A stretch of 64,000 bases of DNA from Candidatus Thorarchaeota archaeon (GCA_048884965.1 JBHLQH010000004.1:115368-179367), one strand, 5' to 3'. Numbered from the stretch's first letter, positions 16,626-50,933 are shown. Notes: generated by a model not told the origin, from the letters alone. Program-made: numbers and translations.

Positions 16626-17498
16626 ATGACTGAAACAGAATCATTCTTCGATAAGACATGGATGCGAAAAGGTCTCAGATCAGAGCTAAGAGCTGCAAAT
16701 GCTCTTGCTGTTAAACAATGGAAGGAAGAGCTAAGCTATCCATTGAGCGTGTTATGGTTCATCGTGATGCCTTTCCTTTGGTTCATCCCCTATTTGATAG
16801 CTGGCACGGCAATAAGCGGCGGACCTGAGTCAGCAGCTCTTGCCGAACTAGTAGGTACAGGAGACTGGTTGACCTTCATCGCCTTAGGCAGTGCATATAC
16901 TGGCCTTGCTATCAGCTTGATGTGGGGTTCTGGCTTTGCATTGCGTAGGGAGCAGAATGCTGGAACTCTCGAGACCCTAATGACAACGCCAATGCGCCGC
17001 GAAACTCTAGTCTGGGGAGCAATGCTCCATAATCTACAGCATGGAGGGCTTGGAGTTGTATTGCAACTTGGAGCTTCAATCCTTCTCTTCGGTGTTTCGT
17101 TGAATATTTGGGGAGTGCTTCCTGCACTGGCAGTGATTGGACTATCTATCATTGCAATGCAAGGATTAGTCTTCACAGTGGTGTGTATCGTTCTTGTTGC
17201 AAAGCAAGGTTGGATGATCATCGAGTTGATGTCAAGTACATTATTACTTGTTGCACCGATGACCTATCCAATTGCAGTCCTACCACCACTGCTCCAATAT
17301 GTATCGCTAGCATCACCATTGACCTGGACAGTGGAGGGATTTCGAGGATTTCTAATGCAGGGTCTGGGGTATAGCGGAGTAGTGACTGCCATCACTGCTC
17401 TAATCATTCTCGATGTTGTGTTCCTCGTGCTGGGGATGTTGCTTTTCCGTGTTACTGAGAAGCAGGTCAGGTCTCGTGGAGCTCTGTCACAATTCTAA
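16626..17498 (+). CDS. ABC-2 type permease (second)
   Basis: EQNAGTLETLMTTP motif, 6 TM. Confidence 0.88.
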   Translation: MTETESFFDKTWMRKGLRSELRAANALAVKQWKEELSYPLSVLWFIVMPFLWFIPYLIAGTAISGGPESAALAELVGTGDWLTFIALGSAYTGLAISLMWGSGFALRREQNAGTLETLMTTPMRRETLVWGAMLHNLQHGGLGVVLQLGASILLFGVSLNIWGVLPALAVIGLSIIAMQGLVFTVVCIVLVAKQGWMIIELMSSTLLLVAPMTYPIAVLPPLLQYVSLASPLTWTVEGFRGFLMQGLGYSGVVTAITALIILDVVFLVLGMLLFRVTEKQVRSRGALSQF

Positions 17499-17499
17499 A

Positions 17500-17525
17500 G
17501 AGGAGGGGAAAAGGTCCCCCTCCTA
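17500..17525. terminator. Hairpin between convergent genes
   Basis: GGAGGGGA-AAAGG-TCCCCTCC inverted repeat. Confidence 0.55.
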
Positions 17526-17530
17526 CTGCC

Positions 17531-19420
17531 TCATTCCGTTTTTCGTTTCACATGCCTAAAGAGATAGATGAATACACCGACTCCGCCCACTGCAACTATA
17601 GGAACAGCCAGAACAACTCCAAGGAGCATGTCTGCGGCTGGTGCAGCATCAGTATACACTGGTGGATATGGTGTAGCAGTGGCGTAGGTTGCGGGAGCAT
17701 CAAAGTATGTGGCAAGTTCGCCAGTTTGCTCTTCAGCCTCTGATAGAACTTCGGTGACTAAGATCATACCAGTATAACCCTCAACCACAAGCCCATATTG
17801 TACTCCCAAAGCTGATATTTGCTCTCGCAACTCATTCGTATTGCCCTCAAGTCGGACCTGTAGTAGCAACCATGATATGCGCTGCTGCGCCCAAATCCTC
17901 TCAACATGACTATTCTCGCTTCCAGCCAGTCCAGCAGAGTTGGAGTAGGTTTCACTTCCTGAAAGGTAATCCACCGTTGTTGAGATTGAGATGCTAGATA
18001 GGTATCGACCAGAAATTACAACCTCACTCCCATTGAAGAAAGGTGCACCCCCAGTAGGTTGCATACTTGAGTAATCCAGTGCACCATCGACATAGATGGT
18101 ATAGCCACTGGCAACAGGCTTGGACCATATCTTGTAAAAATCAAGTAATTTTGTCACAGCATCATCATCAGGATGAATTAGCTCAAAGAAACCACTATTC
18201 TGTGATGCCACATTTGCCATAAGTGTTTCATCAGCATCAGTACCAAAGGAAATGGTAGAGATTGAAACTCCCTTAGAATTTGTCTCCTGAATTGCTGAAA
18301 GAATCGCATCACTACTTGTGGATTCTCCGCATGTTGGCAATCCATCAGAAAGGATGAGCATCGCTTTCGTGTATGAACCATCAGTAAAGGTTTCCAGACC
18401 AGTTACACCAGCGCCATAGAAATTCGTTGAGCCATCTGCGGATAGACCGTTCACCCAGTTCTTTGCGAACCACTTATTCAGATCCGATGCTGCATATGGT
18501 TCAAGCCAGAGAGTTGAGACCTCAGTGGAGAATGCTACCACATTGAAGATATCATTCTCATTCATATCGTCAATCATTGAGCAAAATGCTTCCTTTGCTT
18601 GGGAAATCTTTGTTCCTGACATAGAGCCAGACCTATCAAGCACAAAGACATATTCTCGAGGACATACTTCGCTCGAAGTAGAAATTTGAGGTGCAAGCAG
18701 ATAAGCAAAGAAATTCTGTGTTCCATTATAGTAGGTCAATAACTGACTTCCACCTTCCTGACGAGATAGCGCATATGTAAGAGAAAGAGATAGTGGTATT
18801 GAAACACTGGTGCCTGAATATTGGATACGAATACCTGCTGAGATGTCAGTGATAATGACTGACTCCAATCCAGCAACTGCATAGCCAGAGATACCCCCAT
18901 ACTGCGACGTTACTGTAACGTCTACATCGAAATCAGCAAGCATTCCTTCGGATGGTGCGAGAGGGATGTCAATGTGATAGAGACCTGTTCTTCTAGTCAA
19001 CAGACCCTCAATAAAAACTTGCAAGGAGGCGAATGTTCCATTTGCCACATTGAATCTCAATGAGTAGCCTCCATAGCTACGTGTAACAAGGACAGCGGTA
19101 TGCCCAGCTTCAACCTCCTCCTCGTAGGTTTCAATTGCTTCCTGCTCGACAATTACACGTCCCCAATATATCGAACCATTGAGGAGTATGGAGATATTGC
19201 TTAGACGTAGTCCTTCTTGAAGGCCAAAGAACCAGTTGACCTCCTTACTTTCACTCGATCCAGTATTGTCAAAAGTAAATTCATAGGTCATGTTGGCATA
19301 GTTATCAGCAATTGAACCCCGAACTGCTATACTTGAAGGCCCAAGGAAAGTTGTTTGCCCAGCAACTGGCAGTGATATGAAATTGCTGCACATCAATACA
19401 AATACAATCGCGAATCCCAT
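17531..19420 (-). CDS. VIT plus von Willebrand factor A domain protein, membrane anchored
   Basis: MIDAS motif FVLDRSGSM...LSDG, N-terminal VIT-like region, IWAQQRI motif, C-terminal TM. Confidence 0.88.
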   Translation of the reverse strand: MGFAIVFVLMCSNFISLPVAGQTTFLGPSSIAVRGSIADNYANMTYEFTFDNTGSSESKEVNWFFGLQEGLRLSNISILLNGSIYWGRVIVEQEAIETYEEEVEAGHTAVLVTRSYGGYSLRFNVANGTFASLQVFIEGLLTRRTGLYHIDIPLAPSEGMLADFDVDVTVTSQYGGISGYAVAGLESVIITDISAGIRIQYSGTSVSIPLSLSLTYALSRQEGGSQLLTYYNGTQNFFAYLLAPQISTSSEVCPREYVFVLDRSGSMSGTKISQAKEAFCSMIDDMNENDIFNVVAFSTEVSTLWLEPYAASDLNKWFAKNWVNGLSADGSTNFYGAGVTGLETFTDGSYTKAMLILSDGLPTCGESTSSDAILSAIQETNSKGVSISTISFGTDADETLMANVASQNSGFFELIHPDDDAVTKLLDFYKIWSKPVASGYTIYVDGALDYSSMQPTGGAPFFNGSEVVISGRYLSSISISTTVDYLSGSETYSNSAGLAGSENSHVERIWAQQRISWLLLQVRLEGNTNELREQISALGVQYGLVVEGYTGMILVTEVLSEAEEQTGELATYFDAPATYATATPYPPVYTDAAPAADMLLGVVLAVPIVAVGGVGVFIYLFRHVKRKTE

Positions 19421-40498: not shown

Positions 40499-41023
40499 TC
40501 ACCAAGTATCATAGTGAACGATTGATTCGTCGTACCTATCTTCAGATGGCTTCTCCTCAGCAGGATGTCCGATGGGAACAACGGCAAGTGGTACGATGCC
40601 TTCAGGCATCCCAAAGAACTCCTGTACCATCCGTACTCTTTCTTCAATGGGATAAATCTCAAGCCAGAGACCTCCAAGTCCTAGTCCATGAATTGCGAGG
40701 AGCATATTGAGTGTCGCATTTGCGCAGTCCATCTGCCAACGAGCTTCCCACTTCTCGCGGCTCTTGTCGTGACAGACAATTACTGCAACAGGAACATCGC
40801 GGAGCATGGTGGCATACGGATATGCTTCGATGAGTTTCTCCATCTGCTCGCGGTCCCTAACAACTACAAACTGCCACTGTCGTTGATTCCCAGAAGTTGG
40901 TGCGCTCATACCTGCTTTGAGTATCTTTTGCACAATTTCTGGTGAAACATCGCCCATTGTATATTTCCGAATACTACGTCTTGTATATAATGCTTCAAGA
41001 ATATCCATAGCATTGGGGCTCAC
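40499..41023 (-). CDS. Nitroreductase family protein
   Basis: RRSIRKY, APTSGNQRQW and GLGGLW motifs. Confidence 0.92.
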   Translation of the reverse strand: MSPNAMDILEALYTRRSIRKYTMGDVSPEIVQKILKAGMSAPTSGNQRQWQFVVVRDREQMEKLIEAYPYATMLRDVPVAVIVCHDKSREKWEARWQMDCANATLNMLLAIHGLGLGGLWLEIYPIEERVRMVQEFFGMPEGIVPLAVVPIGHPAEEKPSEDRYDESIVHYDTW

Positions 41024-41133
41024 TATCCTTTCTTATAAGACACATTTTCTTAGCAAAGCAACAATGTTGCGTTCTTCTTGCAGGTATATATACAGATGAA
41101 ATTCATACTTCTATAGAGTTGAAGGTGAAACCC

Positions 41134-41904
41134 ATGTCAACCACACCGAATATAGACCTAGCTCGAGAACTACTTGCAAATCCTAAGTTTCCTCGTACAA
41201 TGACATACGACCCTGAATGGATTGTAGAACAGGACATGGGTTGCCCAACACTATGGCTGCTTGAGCGACTATGTGAGAGAATGCGACTAGAACCGAATAT
41301 GCGAGTATTGGATCTAGGCTGTGGAAAAGCAGCTGGTTCCATCTTTCTTGCCAAAGAGTACGATGTGGAAGTGTGGGCGGTTGACATTGGTGTAAGTCAG
41401 ACCGAGAATTTGGAAAGAATAAAACAGATGGGGCTAGAGTCATTAGTATTCCCTTTGAGGACTGATGCTCGCGAACTGCCATTTCCAAAGGACTTCTTTG
41501 ATGCGATAATATGTGTGAACTCTCTCTTCTTCTTCGCAACAGACGACATATATCTCCGGCACCATCTACTTCCAAGAGTCAAGATAGGCGGTCAGATAGG
41601 TAGCGTTGTGCCAGGATTCTACCACGAATTCGAAGGAGATGTACCGGATTGTATTCCTGAACATTTGAGGAGATATTGGGAATCATGTATGTTGTATACA
41701 TGGCATTCGGCAGAATGGTGGAGGAAGCACTGGCTTAAAACTAGTTCAGTGGAGATTGAACTCGCAGATAATTTCCCAGATAAGGAAGGCTATCAGACGT
41801 ACTTGGAGTGGGAAAGAATTATTGGATATCCTCAAAAGATCGCAGAGGAAGATGCTGGTAGAAATATCACATTCTCACGCCTAGTGGTTCAAAGAACAAA
41901 GTGA
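41134..41904 (+). CDS. Class I SAM-dependent methyltransferase
   Basis: VLDLGCGK and LPFPKDFFDAI motifs. Confidence 0.88.
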   Translation: MSTTPNIDLARELLANPKFPRTMTYDPEWIVEQDMGCPTLWLLERLCERMRLEPNMRVLDLGCGKAAGSIFLAKEYDVEVWAVDIGVSQTENLERIKQMGLESLVFPLRTDARELPFPKDFFDAIICVNSLFFFATDDIYLRHHLLPRVKIGGQIGSVVPGFYHEFEGDVPDCIPEHLRRYWESCMLYTWHSAEWWRKHWLKTSSVEIELADNFPDKEGYQTYLEWERIIGYPQKIAEEDAGRNITFSRLVVQRTK

Positions 41905-41907
41905 TCT

Positions 41908-42126
41908 CTATGCGGCTTCCATGAAAGCATCAATGACACTCTCGATGAACAGGATATCCTCATTCAGAGACGAGTAGTCGCTTATTCTAATGAGATTCAA
42001 GACGTCCTCTCTAGTCTTCGGGTCAATCCCAAGATCCATACTAAGAGATAGAAGCTTTGCTACTTCTAGTTGAACACAAAGCGCACATGATTCATACCCT
42101 ATGGAACTCACTTCGAACCCCTTCAT
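41908..42126 (-). CDS. Hypothetical protein
   Basis: 72-aa ORF filling an intergenic gap, with a CALC motif. Confidence 0.5.
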   Translation of the reverse strand: MKGFEVSSIGYESCALCVQLEVAKLLSLSMDLGIDPKTREDVLNLIRISDYSSLNEDILFIESVIDAFMEAA

Positions 42127-42206
42127 TTCTATCTCAGTTCGTCACGCCAAATAAAACACCGACATTAAAATATTCCGAAATTTCTGAAATCAAGTTTCAA
42201 TTCATT

Positions 42207-43706
42207 TTACTTGGCCTTTGGCATCTTGATGTAGACAATCGTCCCTTTGGCATGGCCGTTAGGCGTACCTGATATATTCTCGATCCAAATCTCTGCATTG
42301 AATCGTAGGAGAATGGATTTGACAATCGAAAGACCAAGACCTCGTTGACCCTCTGGTTTTACTGAAGCAAGCACAATGGTCTTTATCTCATCAGGAATTC
42401 CAGGACCTCTATCTGCTATTCCAAAGATATAGAAGTTCTCCATTTCTTGCAGGCTTAGATCTATTTCCACATGATCTTCTCTCTCATTTCTATGTTTTAT
42501 TGAGTTCGAGAGGATATTATACAATACATCTACAAGCAACGGATGCATCAGCACATTGATGTTCTCGATTGAATTCCTGTTGTTCACTTTGAGAGCAACT
42601 GTTGCGTAAGTGCGCTGTGTGCGTTCCAAGGCTTTATCGAATTTTGTGGCCAAAGATACCGGTACAGCTTTCATGGATTCTTCCTGAACTTGGTTCAAAC
42701 TTAGCACATTCCGAACTAAATCGGTCGATTCCCATACCACTTGCTTGGCACTCTTAATGATATGGAGCGACTTCTCATCGATATTTGGATTCTGCATTTC
42801 TATTAGTTCAAGATAAGTCTGAAGACTTTGATTATGATTAGTGATATCATGACTAAGCAGACTCAGGAGTAGGTGAATCATTTTTCGGTCCTCCTCGGAT
42901 CTACGAAGTGCATCAACAACCTCTCTCTTTGGCAGACTGAATAGATCTGAAAGCGATAATCGAGGACCATCCATCGTCATCGTGAACTTCGGTTTCAGTA
43001 TGAATATCGCGATCAACATTGTAATGCTGAATAGGAAACCTAGGAAGAGCTTGTTCAAAATTGATGCAATTCCTTGTACTACAGAGATTGACTGAGTTGC
43101 TGGAAATGCTAGCAATGGAAAGAGGATGCCATCTGCCAATAGCGTCAAGATATAGGTGATAATCACTAGGACGGATGGTGGCGTTTTGGGAAATCGAGTA
43201 GATAGTCTTTCGAGTACATACACCATTGCTAGTAGTTCGACCAAAGCAAGTAGATTGCCAATAATGAAGATCCAGAAACTTGTCTGGAATATCTCACTCG
43301 GAATCATGAGGGGATTGATTGATACAGTACTTTCGAGAGTGAAATAGATTAGAGGATAGACAAGGAGGAATACAATCTGAATCGCGATGAGACCATACAC
43401 AACCATCTTTGTCAGTTCAGGATCGCGTTCCATTATGTATAGAAGCATGATAGACCAGATGACCGCTGCATAGACGATATTTCCTCCACCTACTTGAATT
43501 CCAAATCCAAGATCAATGACATAGAAACTGCTCATTATCGATACATACACCTGAAGGATTCCAAGAAACATGTAGAATGGTATGAGTGAAAGATGACCTC
43601 TCATAGCATAAAGGAAGACTCCAATTGAAGAATAGATTATGACATGCAAAATGAGAAATCCAAAACCGAGCATGTGGTTCACTTCAGAGTATAAATTGCT
43701 CCCCAA
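42207..43706 (-). CDS. Membrane histidine kinase with a 7-TM N-terminal sensor
   Basis: 7 TM segments, LLSHDITN, NILSNSIKH, DRGPGI and GLGL motifs. Confidence 0.88.
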   Translation of the reverse strand: MGSNLYSEVNHMLGFGFLILHVIIYSSIGVFLYAMRGHLSLIPFYMFLGILQVYVSIMSSFYVIDLGFGIQVGGGNIVYAAVIWSIMLLYIMERDPELTKMVVYGLIAIQIVFLLVYPLIYFTLESTVSINPLMIPSEIFQTSFWIFIIGNLLALVELLAMVYVLERLSTRFPKTPPSVLVIITYILTLLADGILFPLLAFPATQSISVVQGIASILNKLFLGFLFSITMLIAIFILKPKFTMTMDGPRLSLSDLFSLPKREVVDALRRSEEDRKMIHLLLSLLSHDITNHNQSLQTYLELIEMQNPNIDEKSLHIIKSAKQVVWESTDLVRNVLSLNQVQEESMKAVPVSLATKFDKALERTQRTYATVALKVNNRNSIENINVLMHPLLVDVLYNILSNSIKHRNEREDHVEIDLSLQEMENFYIFGIADRGPGIPDEIKTIVLASVKPEGQRGLGLSIVKSILLRFNAEIWIENISGTPNGHAKGTIVYIKMPKAK

Positions 43707-43830
43707 ATCGTCTAGATTATCCTATTTAGATTATAGATATAACCAACTTCAAGAGTATACCAATTTCTCGACGAAATTTGCATTGAAGGATAGGCTAATG
43801 ATATTCACCTCACAGGGATACTTGATTACA

Positions 43831-44082
43831 ATGTCCGAAGAGAATACCTCAACAGGATACCAACCTAGGACCAAGCCATTCTATACATTCCCGCAGTACG
43901 CGGCAATAACATTCATCCTCTCACCAATTCTGGGATATTTGTTAGCGTACTATGGCTTCATACCATTCGATCCTCTCTATACAGCACTTGCTGCACTGGC
44001 GTTCTGCTTCGTCTATGTGGGTTATCGAGGATACTATTGGAAAATATACAGAAAGGATGAAAGGCAACCATCTGAAGATTGA
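43831..44082 (+). CDS. Small 2-TM membrane protein
   Basis: ATG at 43831 and two hydrophobic helices. Confidence 0.6.
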   Translation: MSEENTSTGYQPRTKPFYTFPQYAAITFILSPILGYLLAYYGFIPFDPLYTALAALAFCFVYVGYRGYYWKIYRKDERQPSED

Positions 44083-44173
44083 TAGCCTTCTAGGAAAGAT
44101 TGTTTCTCGCAGAAACCTGATTGAATTTCAAAAATAATGGAACCTCAGACACTTGGTCCGAGGCTTCTTAGTT

Positions 44174-44416
44174 TCACTTGCCCTTCCATGCTGGCATCTG
44201 AGACATATATTCATCTGTCTTGACTTCTGCTGAGGAACGATCTAGATTCTCACGGGACATCCAGAAATTCACCATGTTCTCACGTACAACATTTCGAGGC
44301 TTGAGGCTGCCATCCTCGGTGCTGCAATACACACAGCTCTTGTTGTCCGTATTCTTTCCACCAAAATCCTCGGGTTTGGTCATTCCCATTCCACACGATA
44401 TGCAATGCTTTGCCAT
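44174..44416 (-). CDS. Zinc-ribbon domain protein (Zn_ribbon_2-like)
   Basis: CISCGM...CVYC...DG...MPAWK pattern and AGGAGGT Shine-Dalgarno. Confidence 0.8.
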   Translation of the reverse strand: MAKHCISCGMGMTKPEDFGGKNTDNKSCVYCSTEDGSLKPRNVVRENMVNFWMSRENLDRSSAEVKTDEYMSQMPAWKGK

Positions 44417-44503
44417 ATGCTTTCACTAAAACCTCCTACAGCGTAATAGGAATATAAAATACTATTCAGTAAGTTCTATAGGCAGTTTTACCAATAGCTC
44501 ATT

Positions 44504-45364
44504 ATGCCTTCTCGTGAAAGAGTAAGAAACCTCATCATGTTGATGCTAGATAGACATCCAATCCATGGATATGAGATTAGACGTCAACTTGTTCCCTTGG
44601 CTGGGGATATAGAAGTCACAACATTGTATCGATGGCTAAGAGAAATGGAAAAGGAAGGGCTTATTGAAAGTAAAGCAAAGAAAGGACCACATGGTCCTGA
44701 AAGAAAAGAATACAGAATGGGATCAAGAGGTGAGCGTCATCTTAGAGAGGTCCTACGTGATTCGATGAGGGTCATTTTACATTTCTATGACGAGTTCAGG
44801 CATTATTCCTTTGCGAAGAGCCTGAGTAACGCTACGAGTTCCGAACACGGTCAAGAATCAATTGAAGGAAGAATCATTGTAGCTATAGTCACGCCCTCTA
44901 TGGCAGACCAAGTCGATACCATGAAGCTCATCACCAATCGAGCTGGTGAGAATAGCATTCATGTTATGGGGGACCCCAAAAACCTAGTAGGTTTGGATAA
45001 GAAATTCATACTCATCGAAGGTAGCCCTTGGGACATTCCTTGCAAGAAGAATCACTACCATGAATACTGGATTCTCGGTATGCCTGCAAGAGAACTCCTC
45101 CCAAGGACTCTAGTCGAGAGCAAGCGCATCTTGGATAATGGCGGAACGGTAAGGATGCATGTTCCATTCGCCTTTTTTGATGAACCTGCTGAGCCAACTC
45201 TAGAATCGTTTCTAAGGCTAACAGCATCACATCTGTTTCCAGAGCTTGGTGTAGTAGAGGGACAAGAGGTCTGCGACCTGTTCGAGAAGATGTTTGAGGA
45301 CTTTGGGATTATCAAGTTTCACCCGGGGCATGTTCAATTCTGGGGCACAAATAGTTCAGAATGA
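44504..45364 (+). CDS. PadR-family regulator with a C-terminal methyltransferase-like domain
   Basis: PIHGYEI...TLYRWLREMEKEGLI...RKEY wHTH. C-terminal ESKRILDNGG resembles a class I MTase. Confidence 0.8.
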   Translation: MPSRERVRNLIMLMLDRHPIHGYEIRRQLVPLAGDIEVTTLYRWLREMEKEGLIESKAKKGPHGPERKEYRMGSRGERHLREVLRDSMRVILHFYDEFRHYSFAKSLSNATSSEHGQESIEGRIIVAIVTPSMADQVDTMKLITNRAGENSIHVMGDPKNLVGLDKKFILIEGSPWDIPCKKNHYHEYWILGMPARELLPRTLVESKRILDNGGTVRMHVPFAFFDEPAEPTLESFLRLTASHLFPELGVVEGQEVCDLFEKMFEDFGIIKFHPGHVQFWGTNSSE

Positions 45365-45395
45365 GCCGAATCAGACAATGGTCAACTAATTTTGT

Positions 45396-45410
45396 ACAAG
45401 AATTTATATA
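45396..45410 (+). promoter_or_regulatory. Archaeal BRE/TATA promoter of tRNA block 1
   Basis: TTTATATA at 45403-45410 after a purine-rich element, about 25 nt before the GGAG leader start. Confidence 0.7.
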
Positions 45411-45427
45411 GTTTCAAATCTCTTGCC

Positions 45428-45508
45428 GGGAGATTACTATGTGTTCAGTACCACAACCCGGTGAACAGATAGCCCAATATTGGGCAGAGCATATGTAGTC
45501 GTTTCTCT
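45428..45508 (+). ncRNA. Structured leader RNA of block 1 (unknown family)
   Basis: GATTAC-T-ATGTGTTC pairs with GAGCATAT-GTAGTC. Internal hairpins TACC/GGTG and GCCCA/TGGGC. GGGAGA/TTTCTC closes the fold. Confidence 0.55.
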
Positions 45509-45515
45509 AATTCTT

Positions 45516-45590
45516 GGGGCTGTGGTGTTAATGGTAACATATCTGCTTGGCTGGTAGACGATTGAGGTTCGATCCCTTACGGCTCCACCA
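45516..45590 (+). tRNA. tRNA-Ala(GGC)
   Basis: GGGGCTG/CGGCTCC with G3:U70, loop TT-GGC-TG, ACCA end. Confidence 0.85.
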
Positions 45591-45602
45591 ATTAGAGTAT
45601 GA

Positions 45603-45681
45603 GGGCATAGTGGCTGGAAGTAGTTAACGCGCTCGACTTGCAATCTTGAGTATGTAGGTGCAAATCCTACCGTGTCCACCA
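45603..45681 (+). tRNA. tRNA-Ala(UGC), degenerate (a Cys GCA reading is possible)
   Basis: G3:U70 and A73, irregular anticodon arm CTCGA-CTTGCAATC-TTGAG, T-loop TGCAAAT. Confidence 0.6.
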
Positions 45682-45689
45682 TCATTTGG

Positions 45690-45764
45690 GGTGAATGTGG
45701 TGAAAAGGTATCATAACAGTCCGTGAAGCTGGAGTTGAGAGTTCGATTCTCTTCATTCACACCA
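45690..45764 (+). tRNA. tRNA-His(GUG)
   Basis: GTGAATG/CATTCAC, encoded G-1, loop CC-GTG-AA, A73-CCA. Confidence 0.82.
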
Positions 45765-45769
45765 CCTAT

Positions 45770-45843
45770 GGGTATGTACGTTAACGGCAGACAATTCGAC
45801 TCCAGATCGTATTGTAGAGGTTCAATTCCTCTCATGCCCACCA
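45770..45843 (+). tRNA. tRNA-Trp(CCA), intronless
   Basis: GGGTATG/CATGCCC, loop CT-CCA-GA, ACCA end. Confidence 0.8.
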
Positions 45844-45844
45844 A

Positions 45845-45922
45845 GGGCCATTAGCATAGTTGCGGAATTGCACTCCTCTCATAAGGGAGGTTGCGTTGGT
45901 TCAACTCCAACATGGCCCACCA
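45845..45922 (+). tRNA. tRNA(CAU), Ile2-like or Met
   Basis: GGGCCAT/ATGGCCC, CTCCT-CTCATAA-GGGAG, ACCA end. Confidence 0.82.
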
Positions 45923-45925
45923 CTT

Positions 45926-46001
45926 GACTAGGTAGCATAATAGCGAGTGCCCTTCCCTTGGACGGAAGTTCATGCAGGTTCAAGTCCTGTCCTAGTCACC
46001 A
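45926..46001 (+). tRNA. tRNA-Pro(UGG)
   Basis: GACTAGG/CCTAGTC, CTTCC-CTTGGAC-GGAAG, ACCA end. Confidence 0.85.
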
Positions 46002-46004
46002 TCT

Positions 46005-46079
46005 GCTCCGTTGGTGTAGTGGAAATCACTCGATCCTTTCGAGGTTGGAACGGGGGTTCAATTCCCCCACGGAGCACCA
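46005..46079 (+). tRNA. tRNA-Glu(UUC)
   Basis: GCTCCGT/ACGGAGC, loop CT-TTC-GA, ACCA end. Confidence 0.9.
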
Positions 46080-46081
46080 CT

Positions 46082-46155
46082 GCGTAGTTGAGGTAAAGGT
46101 AACCCACGGGGCTTCCAACCCTGAGCTGGGAGTTCGAGTCTCCCACTGCGCACCA
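46082..46155 (+). tRNA. tRNA-Gly(UCC)
   Basis: GCGTAGT/ACTGCGC, loop CT-TCC-AA, ACCA end. Confidence 0.9.
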
Positions 46156-46157
46156 AT

Positions 46158-46233
46158 AGCCCTGTAGTGTAGACGGAAAGCACGTTGGACCTTGAATTCG
46201 ACGGTCTCGGTTCGAATCCGGGCGGGGCTACCA
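46158..46233 (+). tRNA. tRNA-Gln(UUG)
   Basis: AGCCCTG/CGGGGCT (A1-U72, archaeal type), loop CC-TTG-AA, ACCA end. Confidence 0.87.
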
Positions 46234-46234
46234 T

Positions 46235-46310
46235 CCCAGAGTGAATCTAAGGGCCAGGACATAGGTCTGTAAAGCCTGTGATGCCAGTTCGAGTCTGGCC
46301 TCTGGGACCA
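46235..46310 (+). tRNA. tRNA-Tyr(GUA)
   Basis: CCCAGAG/CTCTGGG (C1-G72), short variable loop, loop CT-GTA-AA, ACCA end. Confidence 0.85.
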
Positions 46311-46311
46311 T

Positions 46312-46386
46312 AGGAGCTTGGTCAAGCGGTAAGACAACTGTCTAACATACAGTCGATCGGTGGTTCGAATCCACCAGCTCCTACCA
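46312..46386 (+). tRNA. tRNA-Val(AAC)
   Basis: AGGAGCT/AGCTCCT, ACTGT-CTAACAT-ACAGT, perfect T-arm, ACCA end. Confidence 0.87.
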
Positions 46387-46403
46387 AATTATCCAAAATT
46401 CAT

Positions 46404-46418
46404 GTGAAAATTTATATA
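46404..46418 (+). promoter_or_regulatory. Archaeal BRE/TATA promoter of tRNA block 2
   Basis: GTGAAAA-TTTATATA, about 25 nt before the GGAG leader start. Confidence 0.75.
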
Positions 46419-46432
46419 CATTCATGAAAAGC

Positions 46433-46670
46433 ACTGGAGGATTACCAATGTTCAGAGAAAATAGTTTGATAGCGTCGTCAAGGACGACACTCGAACGCTC
46501 CACCCATGATAGTCCGAATAAGGACTAGGGTGAGTACACAATCTCTGGACATCACTGCTTCTTTCAAGTCTGCTGGTCTTCAGGGATAGTGGATTTTCTC
46601 TTTGTTGGAGGGCATGTTGCAAAGGAAGAGGGGGAGACCCTCTCTCGTCCCTTGCACTCATCCGTCCAGT
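46433..46670 (+). ncRNA. About 240-nt multibranch structured RNA (unknown family)
   Basis: Terminal stem ACTGGA-GGAT/ATCC-G-TCCAGT, 11-bp ATGTTCAGAGA/TCTCTGGACAT and several nested hairpins. Confidence 0.7.
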
Positions 46671-46676
46671 AAAGGT

Positions 46677-46753
46677 GGGCCAAGAGCACGGTTCGGTTGT
46701 GCAGGAGGCCTTTAACCTCCTAGACGCGGGTTCGAATCCCGCTTGGCTCTCCA
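46677..46753 (+). tRNA. tRNA-Lys(UUU)
   Basis: GGGCCAA/TTGGCTC, GGAGG-CCTTTAA-CCTCC, G8 and C33, TCCA end. Confidence 0.85.
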
Positions 46754-46771
46754 TGCATAGGTCAAAACAGT

Positions 46772-46908
46772 GGAGTGGTAGCTCAATCTGGCAAGAGCGA
46801 TAGCGTTTCACTGTCATTCATACCGTGATCCCTGAGAAGGGCATCGAGTGACAGTTTGCTTTTGGTTCATACCAAGAGATGCTGGTTCAAATCCAGCCCA
46901 CTCCGCCA
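46772..46908 (+). tRNA. tRNA(CAU, Met-like) with a ~60-nt hairpin insertion after the D-arm
   Basis: GGAGTGG/CCACTCC, canonical D- and T-arms, insert at about 46800-46859, TTTTGG-TTCATA-CCAAGA arm, GCCA end. Confidence 0.7.
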
Positions 46909-46913
46909 ACCTT

Positions 46914-46990
46914 GGCGCTGTAGCCAAACGGATCAAGGCACATCCCTTCGAAGGATGGAGGTCTCGGTTCAATTCCGAGCAGCGCCTCCA
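46914..46990 (+). tRNA. tRNA-Arg(UCG)
   Basis: GGCGCTG/CAGCGCC, CATCC-CTTCGAA-GGATG, TCCA end. Confidence 0.88.
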
Positions 46991-46997
46991 AAACCAT

Positions 46998-47074
46998 GAC
47001 CCTGTAGCTCAGTGGATAGGGCACCACGCTTCTAACGTGGCGGGACGTCGGTTCGAGTCCGACCAGGGTCGCCA
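46998..47074 (+). tRNA. tRNA-Arg(UCU)
   Basis: GACCCTG/CAGGGTC, CCACG-CTTCTAA-CGTGG, GCCA end. Confidence 0.9.
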
Positions 47075-47093
47075 AAAATGAAAGGTGAAAACA

Positions 47094-47330
47094 ATGTCGT
47101 ATGAACATCTCATCGGTACAGAAGCCGAAGCACAGGTAAAGGTGACAATCAGCGGAGCTCATAGTGATACTCCAAATCTCTTCGTTTGGGATAGAACAGA
47201 GCTGATTGCAAAGATTTGGCTCTACCCAGATGGTAGGATCAAATACCGAAGTTTTGTTCCTAAGACGACACAAGAGATTGAGATCCGAGGTCGACATCTG
47301 AAAGTGTATGACCCAAGGGAGAATCTCTAG
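47094..47330 (+). CDS. 78-aa hypothetical protein embedded in the tRNA array
   Basis: AGGTGA Shine-Dalgarno at 47083-47088, ATG at 47094, protein-like beta-rich composition. Confidence 0.7.
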   Translation: MSYEHLIGTEAEAQVKVTISGAHSDTPNLFVWDRTELIAKIWLYPDGRIKYRSFVPKTTQEIEIRGRHLKVYDPRENL

Positions 47331-47331
47331 A

Positions 47332-47456
47332 GCAAGCAGTGATCCTATGAATCATTGCCGAGGATTCACCAAACCTAGTATAGAACTTGCCTAAAGTGCG
47401 CGTGATGAGAAGAAGTCCTATCAGACGAAGCCTTGAACCTCACGCGCCTTTGGCAA
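47332..47456 (+). ncRNA. Structured spacer RNA(s) within block 2
   Basis: GCAGTGAT-CCTATGA-ATCATTGC hairpin, then long stem TTGCC-T-AAAG-T-GCGCGTGA / TCACGCGC-CTTT-GGCAA. Confidence 0.55.
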
Positions 47457-47463
47457 CACAAAT

Positions 47464-47590
47464 ACCGGTGTAGCACAGTTGGTAGTGCGCCTGCCTAGTA
47501 AGCAACGCACCAAAAGAGTGCGCCTGCCTTGTAAGCAGGTGGTCGAGAGTTCGAAGCTCTCCATCGGTTCCATTCCGAACACCGGTACCA
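47464..47590 (+). tRNA. tRNA-Thr with duplicated arms (anticodons AGU and UGU) and two CCA ends
   Basis: ACCGGTG pairs with CATCGGT (TCCA, 47572) or CACCGGT (ACCA, 47590). 21-nt direct repeat at 47484-47504 and 47517-47537. Confidence 0.7.
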
Positions 47591-47595
47591 TTTGA

Positions 47596-47670
47596 GTGGG
47601 GATACGCTAAGGGTAGACGACCAGACTGTTGATCTGGGATGTGTCGGTTCGAATCCGACTCCCTGCTCCA
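47596..47670 (+). tRNA. tRNA-Asn(GUU)
   Basis: GTGGGGA/TCCCTGC, CCAGA-CTGTTGA-TCTGG, TCCA end. Confidence 0.83.
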
Positions 47671-47675
47671 TCTTC

Positions 47676-47763
47676 GGTCGGATGGCTGAGTGGTTTAAGG
47701 CTCTGGTCTTGAAAATCAGCGCAGGTAAAACTGCCAGAGGTTCGAATCCTCTTCCGATCGCCA
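47676..47763 (+). tRNA. tRNA-Ser(UGA)
   Basis: GGTCGGA/TCCGATC, long variable arm GCAG/CTGC, G73-CCA. Confidence 0.92.
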
Positions 47764-47767
47764 TCAT

Positions 47768-47841
47768 GGGACACTAGTGTAATGGTAACATCTAAGCTTG
47801 TCGCGCTTTGGCTGGGGGTTCGATTCCCCCGTGTCTCGCCA
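47768..47841 (+). tRNA. tRNA-Asp(GUC)
   Basis: GGGACAC/GTGTCTC, loop TT-GTC-GC, GCCA end. Confidence 0.87.
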
Positions 47842-47844
47842 TAT

Positions 47845-47932
47845 GTCTGGGTGGCAGAGAGGTATAATGCACTAGTCTGCTAAGCTAGATTCCTTCTCGG
47901 AAACGCAAGTTCAAATCTTGCCCCAGACGCCA
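47845..47932 (+). tRNA. tRNA-Ser(GCU)
   Basis: GTCTGGG/CCCAGAC, loop CT-GCT-AA, variable arm TTCC/GGAA, GCCA end. Confidence 0.9.
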
Positions 47933-47998
47933 TTGACAATGTAATTCTGAATATGGGAAATAGAGATACTAATACACAATGAGAAGAATGGGGGGTGG

Positions 47999-48030
47999 GT
48001 GGGAGCAAAGATCAGCTCGCTTGCTCCCAC
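47999..48030. terminator. Hairpin at the end of the tRNA array
   Basis: GTGGGAGCAA...TTGCTCCCAC 10-bp inverted repeat. Confidence 0.5.
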
Positions 48031-48273
48031 TTAGGAACTAGGGGTTAAGAATTGCAAAAGGAGTCTACCAAGTTTATCTTGGAGTTGAGGTTTTCGGCTT
48101 TTGCTTTTGCTCTTCCTTCTTAGGAGGAGTAATTGGCTTCTTGTCCTTAGACATCTTTTCACCTCTATGGACGCATAAAGGATCCTTTGCCTAGGAGAGT
48201 AAGAAATCATCAACCGGGAGATTTTCTGATTTCCACAGACTGTACAAAAGCAACCTTGGACATAGTGTGGCAT
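48031..48273 (-). CDS. Possible small basic protein
   Basis: 80-aa ORF with CTVC and a K/R-rich tail. Its stop abuts a hairpin. Confidence 0.3.
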   Translation of the reverse strand: MPHYVQGCFCTVCGNQKISRLMISYSPRQRILYASIEVKRCLRTRSQLLLLRRKSKSKSRKPQLQDKLGRLLLQFLTPSS

Positions 48274-48361
48274 AACTTGGATATAACCCTATTCCCTCAT
48301 TTTTAGGCCTTAATAGGGCCATTTTGATGAATTCAAGACCATATAGAGCCAAAAATATGAC

Positions 48362-48392
48362 AAAAAAAGGATGAGGGGAGTGAGTCCCCTCA
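48362..48392 (-). terminator. Hairpin plus U-tract terminator of the solute-binding protein gene
   Basis: TGAGGGGA-GTGAG-TCCCCTCA with A7 on the + strand. Confidence 0.6.
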
Positions 48393-48398
48393 CATGAA

Positions 48399-50222
48399 TT
48401 ATCTTTGCCTGAGCAGAACGTATCCACCAACAAGGATCACGACTGCTGCGCCTACAGCTCCAGCAATTATCGCTAGGGTCAGGTCTGCTGCACCAGAGGG
48501 ATCAGTATTGGAGGTTGATGAGGTTATATGCTCGATACCAAAGAAGTAGTTCGGATTATAGACTAGCTCACAGAACTCTCCTGCAACATACTCAGACACG
48601 TTGAAAGGACCCGATGTGACCATAGTCTCGGTTGGAGGATGTGGATTCCAAGTATTCCAGTTCTCGACACCTATGTTCTCAAACACATGTTTTGGAATAA
48701 TGGGTTTGTAGCCAGCAACATGTACATGCCAATAGGATTCTGTATCGAATTCCACGATACATGAATATGGAGTTGGTGCGAAAGCTGCGGACATGGATGA
48801 CAGGTCAGCTCCAAATTGATTTCCGGGAGAGTCCCGATAGTAGTTCAATGTGAAAGCTACATCCTCTGCTGTTAAGGGAGTTCCATCACTCCAAGTAGCA
48901 TTCTGGATAATCTGGAATGTAATTCGGGTGCTACCATCTGGTATCACAGGATTGTCATCATGCGTCTCGACGGTGTAGGACTCTGCTAACCAGAGCATAT
49001 CGTTGCCTGCTGGATCTAGGACGATGAGTTGATCATAAAGCTGATTCAACACATTAGCAGTGTATGCAGAGGTGCTTGCCATGAAGTTGAAGGTATCCAA
49101 ATCCAAAGGATTGCTCCAACGAAATGTTCCACCAAAGGGACCACCAGCAGAAGTCTTCAGGTGGATCTTATAATTAGTCCACCATCCCGGAACGCCGTTG
49201 CTTACATCATTGATGAACCCATCAAACTTGTCTGTCCTATAGGCTGACAAGAGCACGTTCTCATAGCAGATGATTTCCGGGCACTCATAGACCCATATTT
49301 TCTGCATCTCTTGACATGCCTCGAGTACTTCATCATAGTCTGTGGCATGCTGCAGTTGATATGCCCAACTATCAAAGGTCGCGTTCCGGAACATTGGGTA
49401 ATTCAGGTATGGTTCAGTTGCGTAAGCAGAGCCGTATGTGTATGCCAGGAAATCAGTATCGAATGTGTTGAATGAAGTACCAAGGAAAACAATATCGAAA
49501 TCTCCATGGAAGTACAAACGATTCAGATACTCATAGAAGTCAGTTGAGATGGATGTAGCTTCAATGCTTAAGTCTGTCAATGCCGCAGCTGCGAGCTGTC
49601 CAACCTCGATCGCGATGTTTGATGATTGAGCACACTCAACAAGAACATCAAAATTTGAGCCATCGGGCGCTTCTCTGTATCCATCTTCATCAATATCAAT
49701 GAATCCCGCTGCATCTAACAGCTCATTTCCTTTCACAACATTTGCCTCATAGTATGTGTAGGGCAGTTGTCCTTCTATTGACATGGGATTGACTTGAGGT
49801 ATTACACTATCCTGTGGGACTGAAAGCCCTCCCCAGACATCATCTGAGATTGCCTCCTTATCCAAAGCAAATGCTAGTGCCCTCCTGAAGGAAGTTATGT
49901 TGAAAGGATATTTTGCACAGTTAATTACCATGTATCCATATCCATTCCTCAGCACATTCGCGACATCTATATTCTCGGACTCAACAAGAGTGTCAAGGAA
50001 CGTTGGATCAACCATATCCCCAATCAAATCGATTTCATCATCTTGCAATGCGAGAACCTGTTGGTCATCGCCAGTGATGACATCGAACACCAGTTTCTCA
50101 ACATAGGGTCCACTTTTTGTAGAGCCTGGCAGTGTATCCTGAGCAGATACAAGTATCGGTGATACTGCCATCAAGAGAAAAGCAGTCGTGATGATTGAGG
50201 CCAATATCTTCGTCTTATTCAT
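48399..50222 (-). CDS. ABC transporter substrate-binding protein, family 5 (peptide/nickel), C-terminally anchored
   Basis: FRRALAFALD, WSDGTPLTAEDVAFT and TSGPF motifs, signal peptide, C-terminal TM. Confidence 0.9.
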   Translation of the reverse strand: MNKTKILASIITTAFLLMAVSPILVSAQDTLPGSTKSGPYVEKLVFDVITGDDQQVLALQDDEIDLIGDMVDPTFLDTLVESENIDVANVLRNGYGYMVINCAKYPFNITSFRRALAFALDKEAISDDVWGGLSVPQDSVIPQVNPMSIEGQLPYTYYEANVVKGNELLDAAGFIDIDEDGYREAPDGSNFDVLVECAQSSNIAIEVGQLAAAALTDLSIEATSISTDFYEYLNRLYFHGDFDIVFLGTSFNTFDTDFLAYTYGSAYATEPYLNYPMFRNATFDSWAYQLQHATDYDEVLEACQEMQKIWVYECPEIICYENVLLSAYRTDKFDGFINDVSNGVPGWWTNYKIHLKTSAGGPFGGTFRWSNPLDLDTFNFMASTSAYTANVLNQLYDQLIVLDPAGNDMLWLAESYTVETHDDNPVIPDGSTRITFQIIQNATWSDGTPLTAEDVAFTLNYYRDSPGNQFGADLSSMSAAFAPTPYSCIVEFDTESYWHVHVAGYKPIIPKHVFENIGVENWNTWNPHPPTETMVTSGPFNVSEYVAGEFCELVYNPNYFFGIEHITSSTSNTDPSGAADLTLAIIAGAVGAAVVILVGGYVLLRQR

Positions 50223-50522
50223 TTTTCATTTCTCTCCAAAAACCGGTCGAAGTCAGGAGATAGAGGAGGAGAGAGATGTCGCATGATACATGAGCGGACT
50301 CGGTATGGATTTTTGGAAACAGGGAATCGCTCGACTCTGAGTACATCACAATGCTGTCAGACATTTTGTACGTGCTCGATTGGTATCATGAATTGACATC
50401 TCAACTCATGAGAATAAGAAGCATGATAGAATATTAAGGACAGTCACGGCTGCAGGCAGTTTTGCATTGAAAATACACAAAGAAGTTGATAGGCTTGATT
50501 AGGTTCAGGAGGGTATGAATTA

Positions 50523-50558
50523 AAAAAAGAGAGGAGCTCAACCATTATGGTTGAGCTA
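50523..50558 (-). terminator. Hairpin plus U-tract terminator
   Basis: AGCTCAACCA-TTA-TGGTTGAGCT next to an A-run on the + strand. Confidence 0.55.
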
Positions 50559-50576
50559 TGTGACTATTGGCAGTTG

Positions 50577-50933
50577 TTAGCCTATGACAAGAGATATGAT
50601 ACCTTTGTCTGGGTCGATGTCTAAATCAAGGAGGTCTTTGAGTTCGTCGTCTACCTGGAGAGGATAGGATGATATCAGACCAAGCACGATTTCTTGAAGC
50701 TCTGCTATTCTATCTGGATTAATTGAATATGAAATATTCCTCATATCTGTAAGATCAGGAGTCTTCTTGACGAGATCCTCATCAACTAGGTTGGAGATCG
50801 CGAAGAAAATCGTTCTCGATGGCATACTCGTAAACAGTGCAATCTGTTTAGGTGTGACAGGTCCGTTCTCTTTAATGAAATCAAAAACCTCGACCGCTCT
50901 TTTGGTCAGACTACATATTTTGATTCCAGGCAT
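50577..50933 (-). CDS. MarR-like winged-helix regulator
   Basis: TPKQI...RTIFFAISNLVDEDLV...DLTDMR pattern. Confidence 0.8.
   Translation of the reverse strand: MPGIKICSLTKRAVEVFDFIKENGPVTPKQIALFTSMPSRTIFFAISNLVDEDLVKKTPDLTDMRNISYSINPDRIAELQEIVLGLISSYPLQVDDELKDLLDLDIDPDKGIISLVIG

Follow-up and report, generated by a model that had tools for sequence, protein, structure and literature searches.

A nearly intron-free supernumerary tRNA array on the chromosome of a Thorarchaeota archaeon and its probable ties to a viral gene pool

Why would an archaeon that already encodes a dispersed set of transfer RNA (tRNA) genes keep a second, tightly packed set at one place on its chromosome? The question is raised by a locus in a 64,000-nucleotide (nt) stretch of DNA from a Candidatus Thorarchaeota archaeon (GCA_048884965.1 JBHLQH010000004.1:115368-179367), which we call the window and whose coordinates we use throughout. 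At 45516-47932 on the + strand it carries 20 tRNA-like units in 2417 bp, about 8 per kb. A prior reading of this DNA from its letters alone (the sequence-only reading) had proposed an inducible backup or counter-defence translation module. We favour, with moderate confidence, the interpretation that this is a chromosomal supernumerary tRNA array, an archaeal counterpart of the bacterial L-arrays, which probably came from the gene pool of viruses or other mobile genetic elements (MGEs) and which would provide a second, splicing-independent tRNA supply.

We observed 19 tRNAs above the Rfam gathering score in 45516-47932, every one on the + strand, and ARAGORN called 17 intron-free tRNAs. Of the 20 units, 17 are canonical tRNAs and one is an intron-bearing tRNA-Thr; the other two are a tRNA-like RNA that carries a 60-nt insert and a decayed unit whose anticodon-like loop reads GCA. 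Judged by appearance, 17-18 of the 20 are working decoders. They form two blocks, between which lie a second promoter and then a 237-nt leader. Each tRNA below was identified by ARAGORN and Rfam unless other evidence is given; fold z-scores compare predicted folding with that of shuffled sequences.

Block 1 (11 units):
45516-45590, + strand: tRNA-Ala(GGC), G3:U70 present
45603-45681, + strand: degenerate tRNA-like unit, GCA in the anticodon-like loop, probably a pseudo-tRNA-Cys (Rfam 23.1 bits, fold)
45691-45764, + strand: tRNA-His(GTG), encoded G-1, A73, C33
45770-45843, + strand: tRNA-Trp(CCA)
45845-45922, + strand: tRNA(CAT), elongator Met or Ile2 type, G1:C72
45926-46001, + strand: tRNA-Pro(TGG)
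46005-46079, + strand: tRNA-Glu(TTC)
46082-46155, + strand: tRNA-Gly(TCC)
46158-46233, + strand: tRNA-Gln(TTG), C33
46235-46310, + strand: tRNA-Tyr(GTA), C1:G72, short variable region (archaeal/eukaryal type)
46311-46386, + strand: tRNA-Val(AAC), A at the wobble position; A1:U72 if the start is 46311

Block 2:
46677-46753, + strand: tRNA-Lys(TTT), C33
46772-46908, + strand: tRNA-like RNA, loop TTCATAC, with 60 nt inserted between its D arm and anticodon arm (Rfam 42 bits, fold z -4.7)
46914-46990, + strand: tRNA-Arg(TCG)
46998-47074, + strand: tRNA-Arg(TCT)
47094-47330, + strand: gene for a conserved 78-amino-acid (aa) beta-strand protein with no assigned function, inside the tRNA operon (13-member family)
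47331-47463, + strand: 133-nt spacer with two hairpins after the protein gene (fold z -3.08)
47464-47590, + strand: tRNA-Thr gene, anticodon AGT, with a 33-nt intron (47501-47533) at position 37/38 (Rfam, alignment, fold)
47596-47670, + strand: tRNA-Asn(GTT)
47676-47763, + strand: tRNA-Ser(TGA)
47768-47841, + strand: tRNA-Asp(GTC)
47845-47932, + strand: tRNA-Ser(GCT), final array gene

The genes are co-oriented and their isotype order is non-periodic. Spacers inside both blocks measured 0-18 nt, many of them 1-3 nt, and T stands at position -1 in 15 of the 20 units compared to 8 of 27 dispersed tRNA genes (counted from sequence). Both the short spacers and the count of 15 had been read correctly from the sequence, as had the lack of Leu and Phe tRNAs and of a clear tRNA-Cys. 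The GCA unit is degenerate: its Rfam match (45604-45678) reached 23.1 bits, below the cut-off of 29, its fold z-score was -0.57, and it has a 9-nt anticodon loop, the T loop TGCAAAT and a poor D arm. It is a probable decayed tRNA-Cys. The count of 20 + strand tRNA genes in 2.4 kb held for tRNA-like units, 19 of them above the gathering score, but not for 46772-46908 as a tRNA gene proper, which is a tRNA-like RNA with a non-canonical anticodon arm. CCA is encoded at the 3' end of all 20 units, as had been noted, but dispersed tRNA genes encode it too, and it is a genome-wide trait rather than an array-specific one. A tRNA array unit has been defined as at least 20 tRNA genes in one region at a density of at least 2 per kb (Tran et al. 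2016, PMC4758250); the 19-20 units in 2417 bp lie above that density.

The genome is a metagenome-assembled genome (MAG) of 4.09 Mb on 99 contigs, 95.7% complete with 7.2% estimated contamination. It contains at least 39 dispersed tRNA genes, and 22 of 39 have one or more insertions (read by eye and by script), some at non-canonical sites (D loop, T loop, position 9/10). A simple scan for the bulge-helix-bulge (BHB) motif recovered sensible introns for several of these genes. Of the 20 array units, 17 proved to have dispersed twins with the same anticodon, and the only anticodons newly brought by the array are Val-AAC and Thr-AGT. What the array adds are second copies of isoacceptors already encoded by a housekeeping set that is dispersed, GC-rich and intron-rich. 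The second-set part of the earlier backup idea was therefore borne out by a genome-wide search, and the array genes are not simply the genome's only tRNA copies. The proposed Asgard origin fits an actin match of 445 bits elsewhere in the genome and the intron-rich tRNA genes, which have been reported, odd intron positions included, for other Asgard lineages (PMC11291895). The GAPDH encoded in the window falls in bacterial-type clusters of a protein atlas and is uninformative for taxonomy.

A mini-array on another contig (G000:C9:108216-108648, where G000 is the source genome; L015:8217-8649) encodes Leu-CAA, Leu-TAG, Leu-GAG, Leu-TAA and Phe-GAA with spacers of 1-5 nt. Its isotypes are exactly those missing from the window array. 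Its neighbours are cell genes (AhpC, a Na/Ca exchanger and a caspase-like protein), and all five tRNAs have same-anticodon, intron-containing dispersed twins.

Within the housekeeping set, several genes had unusual introns, located in the T loop of Phe, at 9/10 of Glu-CTC and in the D loop of Arg-GCG, and Thr-TGT and the initiator Met each had two. ARAGORN miscalled Arg-GCG as 'Trp' and Thr-TGT as 'Val'.

G000:C8 about 90-200; C7:73692-73799; C30:39540-39648; C7:111482-111622; C49:1383-1523: housekeeping tRNAs with odd or double introns

Array tRNAs were 50-77% identical to their dispersed twins. Mean GC content was 0.54 in the array and 0.61 in the dispersed genes (acceptor stems, 0.68 and 0.87). 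The array tRNAs are archaeal in type, with C1:G72 and a short variable arm in tRNA-Tyr, and are headed by TATA promoters. U at position 33 (U33) is near-universal in tRNAs and was present in all dispersed tRNAs checked; C33 occurs in array His, Gln and Lys-TTT. We observed C33 only in array or virus-like tRNAs (window 45691-45764, 46158-46233 and 46677-46753; Lys-TTT and Asp of contig L020; Val-TAC and Ala-TGC of contig L013). A34 anticodons are unusual for archaea, and the array has two, in Val-AAC (46311-46386) and Thr-AGT (47497). The genome also encodes a 149-aa CDA-fold deaminase (G000:C9:64731-65021), whose best NCBIfam match was TadA at 70 bits, below the cut-off of 150.

A syntenic sister array was found on a 1.8-kb metagenomic contig (L020), with the order Lys-TTT, Lys-CTT, Phe, Arg-TCG, Arg-TCT, open reading frame (ORF), Thr-TGT, Asn, Ser-TGA, Asp, Ser-GCT. 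Among five orthologous tRNAs, 86 base pairs were unchanged and 6 had both partners replaced; a further 9 kept pairing through a change of one partner, and 4 were broken. The 78-aa ORF had a dS of 0.65 and a dN/dS of 0.09 against its L020 counterpart. The compensatory tRNA changes and the low dN/dS indicate that the array tRNAs and the small protein are under purifying selection, and 17 intact cloverleaves remain.

We also assessed the location of the array. A 19.9-kb Logan contig from the likely source sample spans 41000-50756 at a flat depth of 12.5, and two further samples of the same study yielded independent contigs that cross the left junction (45097-46462) and the right one (45634-48308) with the same depth as the flanks. 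A chimeric join or an episome is unlikely. The flanking genes are cellular (PadR, a family-5 solute-binding protein, MarR, MttB, a histidine kinase and others), and one of them is a candidate regulator of the array by its position:

44504-45364, + strand: PadR-family regulator gene directly upstream of the array (Pfam PadR, E 8.5e-14)

The chromosomal placement and the lack of flanking integrase, capsid or transposase genes claimed by the sequence-only reading both held. The occurrence of the array among relatives is patchy. In one congener (G004, 155-kb contig), the order histidine kinase, orf147, MttB is kept, and 5.3 kb of other genes with no tRNA lie between; another congener (G006) has a different 10-tRNA array on a 2.6-kb contig. 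Rfam tRNA counts across 41 genomes of the family were 14-33 except in the source genome (46), G044 (52) and G006 (33). Excess tRNAs were found in 3 of the 41, a fraction in which MAG incompleteness limits the test for sporadic distribution. A phylum-wide tally scored 30 candidates in each genome, and its counts are therefore capped and uninformative. The tRNA-free site in G004 and the excess in 3 of 41 genomes indicate that the array is accessory and lies in a variable region.

The intron of the tRNA-Thr gene is a near-copy of the D-stem and the anticodon 5' half of the adjacent exon (window 47484-47537; L021:1858-1913 on a virus-like contig). The resulting tandem repeat spans 21 nt at 95% identity in the window, and in L021 it spans 22 nt at 82%. 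Its copies have different wobble bases, one reading TGT and the other AGT. In another strain, 47497 A>T (run X2) changes the anticodon from AGT to TGT, and a D-stem mismatch accompanies the anticodon change. An archaeal BHB requires, at the exon-intron junctions, a helix, a 3-nt bulge, a 4-bp helix, a second 3-nt bulge and a helix. Placed by hand at 37/38, the Thr BHB has the outer helix CCUGC/GCAGG, the central helix CUAG/CUUG (3 of 4 pairs), the bulges UAA and UAA, and the inner helix GCA/UGC and beyond. A strict 4-of-4 scan left this intron unlisted, though it recovered housekeeping introns. The intron looks as if it was born by tandem duplication, which would make the gene a rare snapshot of a possible intron origin. 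The central helix forms because CUAG/CUUG is nearly self-complementary.

Downstream, the same gene has a second T-arm-like hairpin and then a second, perfectly matching acceptor 3' strand with ACCA. A five-arm cloverleaf with covarying stems folded in three of three sequences (window 47464-47590, L016:5063-5157 and L021:1838-1966). The T-arm-like loops are TTCGAAG/TTCGAAT/TTCAATT and TTCCATT/TTCCACT, and there are two alternative acceptor 3' strands. We know of no described tRNA of five-arm shape with two T-arm-like hairpins, and this one is a candidate new RNA class. A reading of the 3' duplication as an intron was rejected, as no BHB could be placed by hand.

These Thr features tie the array to virus-like DNA. 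The contigs L016 and L021-23 have 33-35% GC, small same-strand ORFs, two LAGLIDADG genes, a phage-type RNA ligase (L016: 11933-12886), an EF-Tu-domain-4-like miniprotein and scattered tRNAs. They share with the window the 33-34-nt insert at 37/38 and the five-arm fold of the Thr gene. The link to a viral or MGE gene pool is supported by the recurrence of both the small-ORF family and this tRNA-Thr on such low-GC contigs. We consider the shared derived tRNA-Thr features the best evidence that the array and these virus-like elements exchange genes. The sister arrays have a common core, Lys-Lys-Arg-Arg-ORF-Thr, and otherwise differ in gene content; in one of them, L033, an RNA-ligase gene lies between the tRNAs (L033:208-738). 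In a sister genus, a 26-kb contig (G044:C26; L040, L013) carries 19-20 tRNAs including Ile-TAT on one strand among orphan ORFs, together with HNH and PD-(D/E)XK endonucleases and tail-sheath and tail-fibre matches. By its gene content we class it as a tailed-virus-like element that has a near-complete tRNA set and was binned with a MAG of the Thorarchaeota family.

Long supernumerary tRNA arrays are already known from bacteria, phages and two euryarchaeal classes. The present one resembles the long arrays of bacteria, described as L-arrays, among them the Anabaena trn operon (Santamaria-Gomez et al. 2021, PMC8421152), and as tRNA array units (Tran et al. 2016, PMC4758250). Shared features are some 20 tRNA genes on one strand, with about 8 per kb, in non-periodic order with short spacers; redundancy to a dispersed set rather than new anticodons; and a scattered, foreign-looking distribution among related species, with an own promoter beside a regulator gene. 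It differs in its Asgard host with BHB-type tRNA introns, its archaeal-type tRNAs and TATA promoters, its contrast to an intron-rich housekeeping set, and its embedded small protein gene and tRNA-like RNA. Stress induction was shown for the Anabaena array (PMC8421152); for the Asgard array it is conjectural. By this comparison the array is L-array-like and outside the bacterial lineage.

The archaeal tRNA clusters surveyed by Morgado & Vicente 2019 came from Halobacteria and Methanobacteria only (PMC6333295). They likewise have archaeal-type tRNAs and signs of plasmid or provirus links and of within-domain horizontal transfer (PMC6333295). Here the host is an Asgard archaeon, the flanks have no plasmid or provirus genes, and the mobile link runs via modules on other contigs. 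The tRNA clusters of large tailed viruses (T4/T5-like phages, mycobacteriophages, haloarchaeal HGTV-1), which come with homing endonucleases and RNA ligase, serve codon supply or counter tRNA-cutting defences (PMC10264068, PMC6409571). Like them, the array supplies most amino acids with one tRNA each, uses mainly U34/G34 anticodons, has AT-richer stems and anticodon loops that diverge, and includes pseudo-tRNAs and very short spacers; relatives of its ORF and tRNA-Thr adjoin LAGLIDADG and RNA-ligase genes on virus-like contigs. Unlike them, it is chromosomal at single-copy depth, with no viral gene nearby and no relative in IMG/VR or among GenBank phages. Arrays linked to GOLLD or ROOL also have structured non-coding RNA interspersed with tRNAs; in the present array the structured parts are leaders and spacers that belong to no family. 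In the literature searched, we found no tRNA array described for Asgard archaea, and this appears to be the first seen in the group, an Asgard instance of an already known array type. The sharp contrast between intron-split everyday tRNA genes and an almost intron-free array with viral hallmarks offers a system for asking why cells maintain a second tRNA set, whether tRNA introns and virus-cell conflict shape each other, and how tRNA genes travel between archaeal viruses and chromosomes.

The arrangement of the locus suggests how such a supply could be produced. Its transcription elements are:

45403-45410, + strand: TATA box 1 (TTTATATA), heading transcription unit 1 (motif scan)
45425-45515, + strand: 5' leader of unit 1, moderately structured (fold z -2.73; no Rfam match)
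46411-46418, + strand: TATA box 2 (TTTATATA), heading transcription unit 2 (motif scan)
46440-46676, + strand: long structured 5' leader of unit 2 (fold z -5.42; no Rfam match)
47996-48030, + strand: 13-bp GC-rich hairpin downstream of the array (fold)

From the promoters at 45403 and 46411, two polycistronic precursors would be transcribed, one with 11 tRNA-like units and one with 9 units and the 78-aa gene. Processing by RNase P and at the 3' ends would then yield 17 CCA-ended tRNAs without introns and one spliced tRNA-Thr, and would also free the mRNA of the small protein, with its Shine-Dalgarno site just behind tRNA-Arg. The array and the C9 mini-array would together cover about 18 amino acids, mostly with U34/G34 anticodons. 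Acquired from the virus/MGE pool of these archaea, the array would constitute a second tRNA supply that needs no splicing. Its use is probably conditional, in response to translational stress or to infection, which is the weakest step of the proposal. A fuller version is decidedly speculative. Here, a virus-derived, splicing-independent set with its own small protein partner would be kept by selection and would take over translation when the intron-rich tRNAs or the splicing and repair machinery are attacked or limiting. Its Thr gene would record how a BHB intron arose when the anticodon half was duplicated in tandem (still polymorphic between strains), along with an undescribed five-arm tRNA shared with the donor viruses.

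Several observations weigh against the origin and role that we favour. We infer transfer indirectly, because no mobile-element gene and no att-like repeat flanks the array: integrase, capsid and transposase domains were absent within about 8 kb on either side, and no att-like direct repeats were found around it. The direction could be from virus to cell or from cell to virus. The recovered pieces of the low-GC contigs carry no capsid genes, and 'virus-like' is a judgement; homologues of the L016 RNA ligase occur only on contigs of 14.7 kb or less, with no capsid gene tied to that lineage. IMG/VR gave no match to the Thr 3' motif or to the L016 RNA ligase, and GenBank phages gave only generic single-tRNA similarity of about 78%. 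No RNA run containing the array stretch was found. Pattern scans of the 95.7%-complete MAG did not find dispersed Trp, Ile(GAT) or Val(TAC/GAC), a result that is inconclusive amid multi-intron tRNAs, and some array genes could be sole copies. Three of the 20 units are aberrant, and strains differ in the Thr gene. Finally, C33, odd discriminator bases and A34 could impair charging of the array tRNAs by host synthetases.

A narrower form of the favoured interpretation is that the array is a specific counter-measure, in which variant tRNAs of viral origin escape anticodon nucleases or other tRNA-depleting attack, as phage sets neutralise PrrC, VapC, PARIS and retron effectors. We consider this possible but rather doubtful. 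It would account for C33 in array His, Gln and Lys(TTT) where the dispersed tRNAs checked have U33, although C33 is absent from the Lys(TTT) of the sister arrays L033 and L037. The sister-array core is rich in Lys and Arg tRNAs, classic nuclease targets, the RNA ligases of L033 and L016 recall the T4 repair of cut tRNA-Lys, and there is phage precedent (PMC10264068). No anticodon nuclease was identified near the array, however, and the genome gave one weak PIN match; an abundance of PIN/VapC proteins was accordingly rejected as support for a toxin-backup role.

It is improbable that the array is the functionless, decaying leftover of an integrated virus or plasmid that has lost its other genes. 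The aberrant units (the GCA unit, the insert-bearing unit and the rearranged Thr), the strain with a D-stem mismatch and a Thr anticodon change, and the position in a variable region are what decay would leave. The 17 intact cloverleaves with compensatory substitutions against L020 at a dS of 0.65, the strong purifying selection on the ORF and the two intact promoters argue otherwise.

Somewhat less probable still is a native, vertically inherited housekeeping operon that was missed or left unassembled in related MAGs. Cellular flanks at equal depth, encoded CCA and archaeal identity features matching the host, and the dispersed isoacceptors that were not found would suit it, and tRNA arrays do assemble poorly in MAGs (the G006 array sits on its 2.6-kb contig). 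Yet 17 of the 20 units have dispersed twins that are merely 50-77% identical, the congener G004 has other genes at the syntenic site, and sister arrays differ in gene content.

An assembly or binning artefact, with a viral or foreign fragment misjoined to an Asgard contig, would draw on the 7.2% contamination estimate and is highly improbable given the bridging contigs at flank depth from two other samples and flanks that are syntenic with a congener.

In the unit at 46772-46908, the acceptor, D and T arms of a tRNA are combined with an 'anticodon' hairpin of 7 bp with a 6-nt loop, and the 42-bit Rfam match of the unit includes a 68-nt insertion. No strict BHB excising the 60-nt insert was found, and no cut pair yields a canonical tRNA. 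A role as a decoder is less likely for this unit than one as a tRNA-like non-coding RNA. The insert has at its core a module, GATCCCTGAGAAGGGCATC..GTGACAGTTTGC, that recurs in three tRNA-like RNAs on contig C47. The four tRNA-like RNAs of the genome (46772-46908 and three at G000:C47 about 16900-17600, - strand) share a GATCCCT..GGGCAC..GTGAAACGATTTGC-like module, inserted after the D arm and before the anticodon arm, and the three on C47 sit ahead of protein genes. Such module-bearing RNAs are a candidate new RNA class.

The single ORF of the array, which the sequence-only reading had also listed, was confirmed as a gene. It starts at 47094 with GGTGA 9 nt upstream, and its family has 13 members with the invariant core DTPNL..LIAKIWLYPDG.I.YRSFV; the low dN/dS given above agrees. 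An AlphaFold2 model (predicted local distance difference test score, pLDDT, 75) showed a five-strand beta meander. Fold matches were weak and unrelated (Foldseek E 0.18 or worse; VIA Z 5.4 or less), Pfam gave no match even at E 5, and IMG/VR had no relatives. Homologues occur in sister arrays (L020, L037, L033), alone in cell-like contexts, and on the 33-35% GC contigs. One truncated copy in a collection of genome contigs and one in JGI metagenomes are not near tRNAs. On virus-like contigs, a stand-alone EF-Tu-domain-4-like miniprotein lies directly 5' of the homologue (L021:1982-2248). Kinship between these two neighbours was rejected; they are unrelated. The small ORF keeps company with translation and tRNA-repair genes. 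In a congener, a truncated, apparently frameshifted small ORF (L002; G003:C44:11310-11486) sits beside a PadR-family gene with no tRNA within 1.5 kb, and may be the trace of a lost array.

The two TATA boxes proposed from the sequence are the only exact copies of TTTATATA in the 64-kb window, one at the head of each tRNA block. They share a 16-nt repeat, AATTTATATA..TTCA (family D8), and each lies about 25-30 nt upstream of a structured leader. Three structured non-tRNA elements had likewise been proposed, and the two leaders and the post-ORF spacer folded better than shuffled sequences (z -2.7, -5.4 and -3.1). Their description as novel non-coding RNAs stood only in part: the leaders and spacers are kept only in the nearest relative, and the tRNA-like unit belongs to a small intragenomic family. 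The three stretches had no Rfam family match. GOLLD and ROOL were absent from the window at the Rfam gathering threshold and from 45300-48200 at E up to 10. The 3' part of leader 2 is conserved in L020 (alignments A2, A3); as a conserved non-coding RNA, leader 2 was rejected, being conserved in L020 only and not in L037. The post-ORF spacer is largely missing from L020 (alignment A2). The hairpin at 47996-48030 is a possible transcript end.

Beyond the array, a 39-nt stretch at 48135-48173 contains the Shine-Dalgarno site of a short Lys-rich - strand ORF together with its first codons (MSKDKK...). We observed the same stretch on a higher-depth contig in all four runs, and it represents a repeated 5' region or a paralogous small gene.

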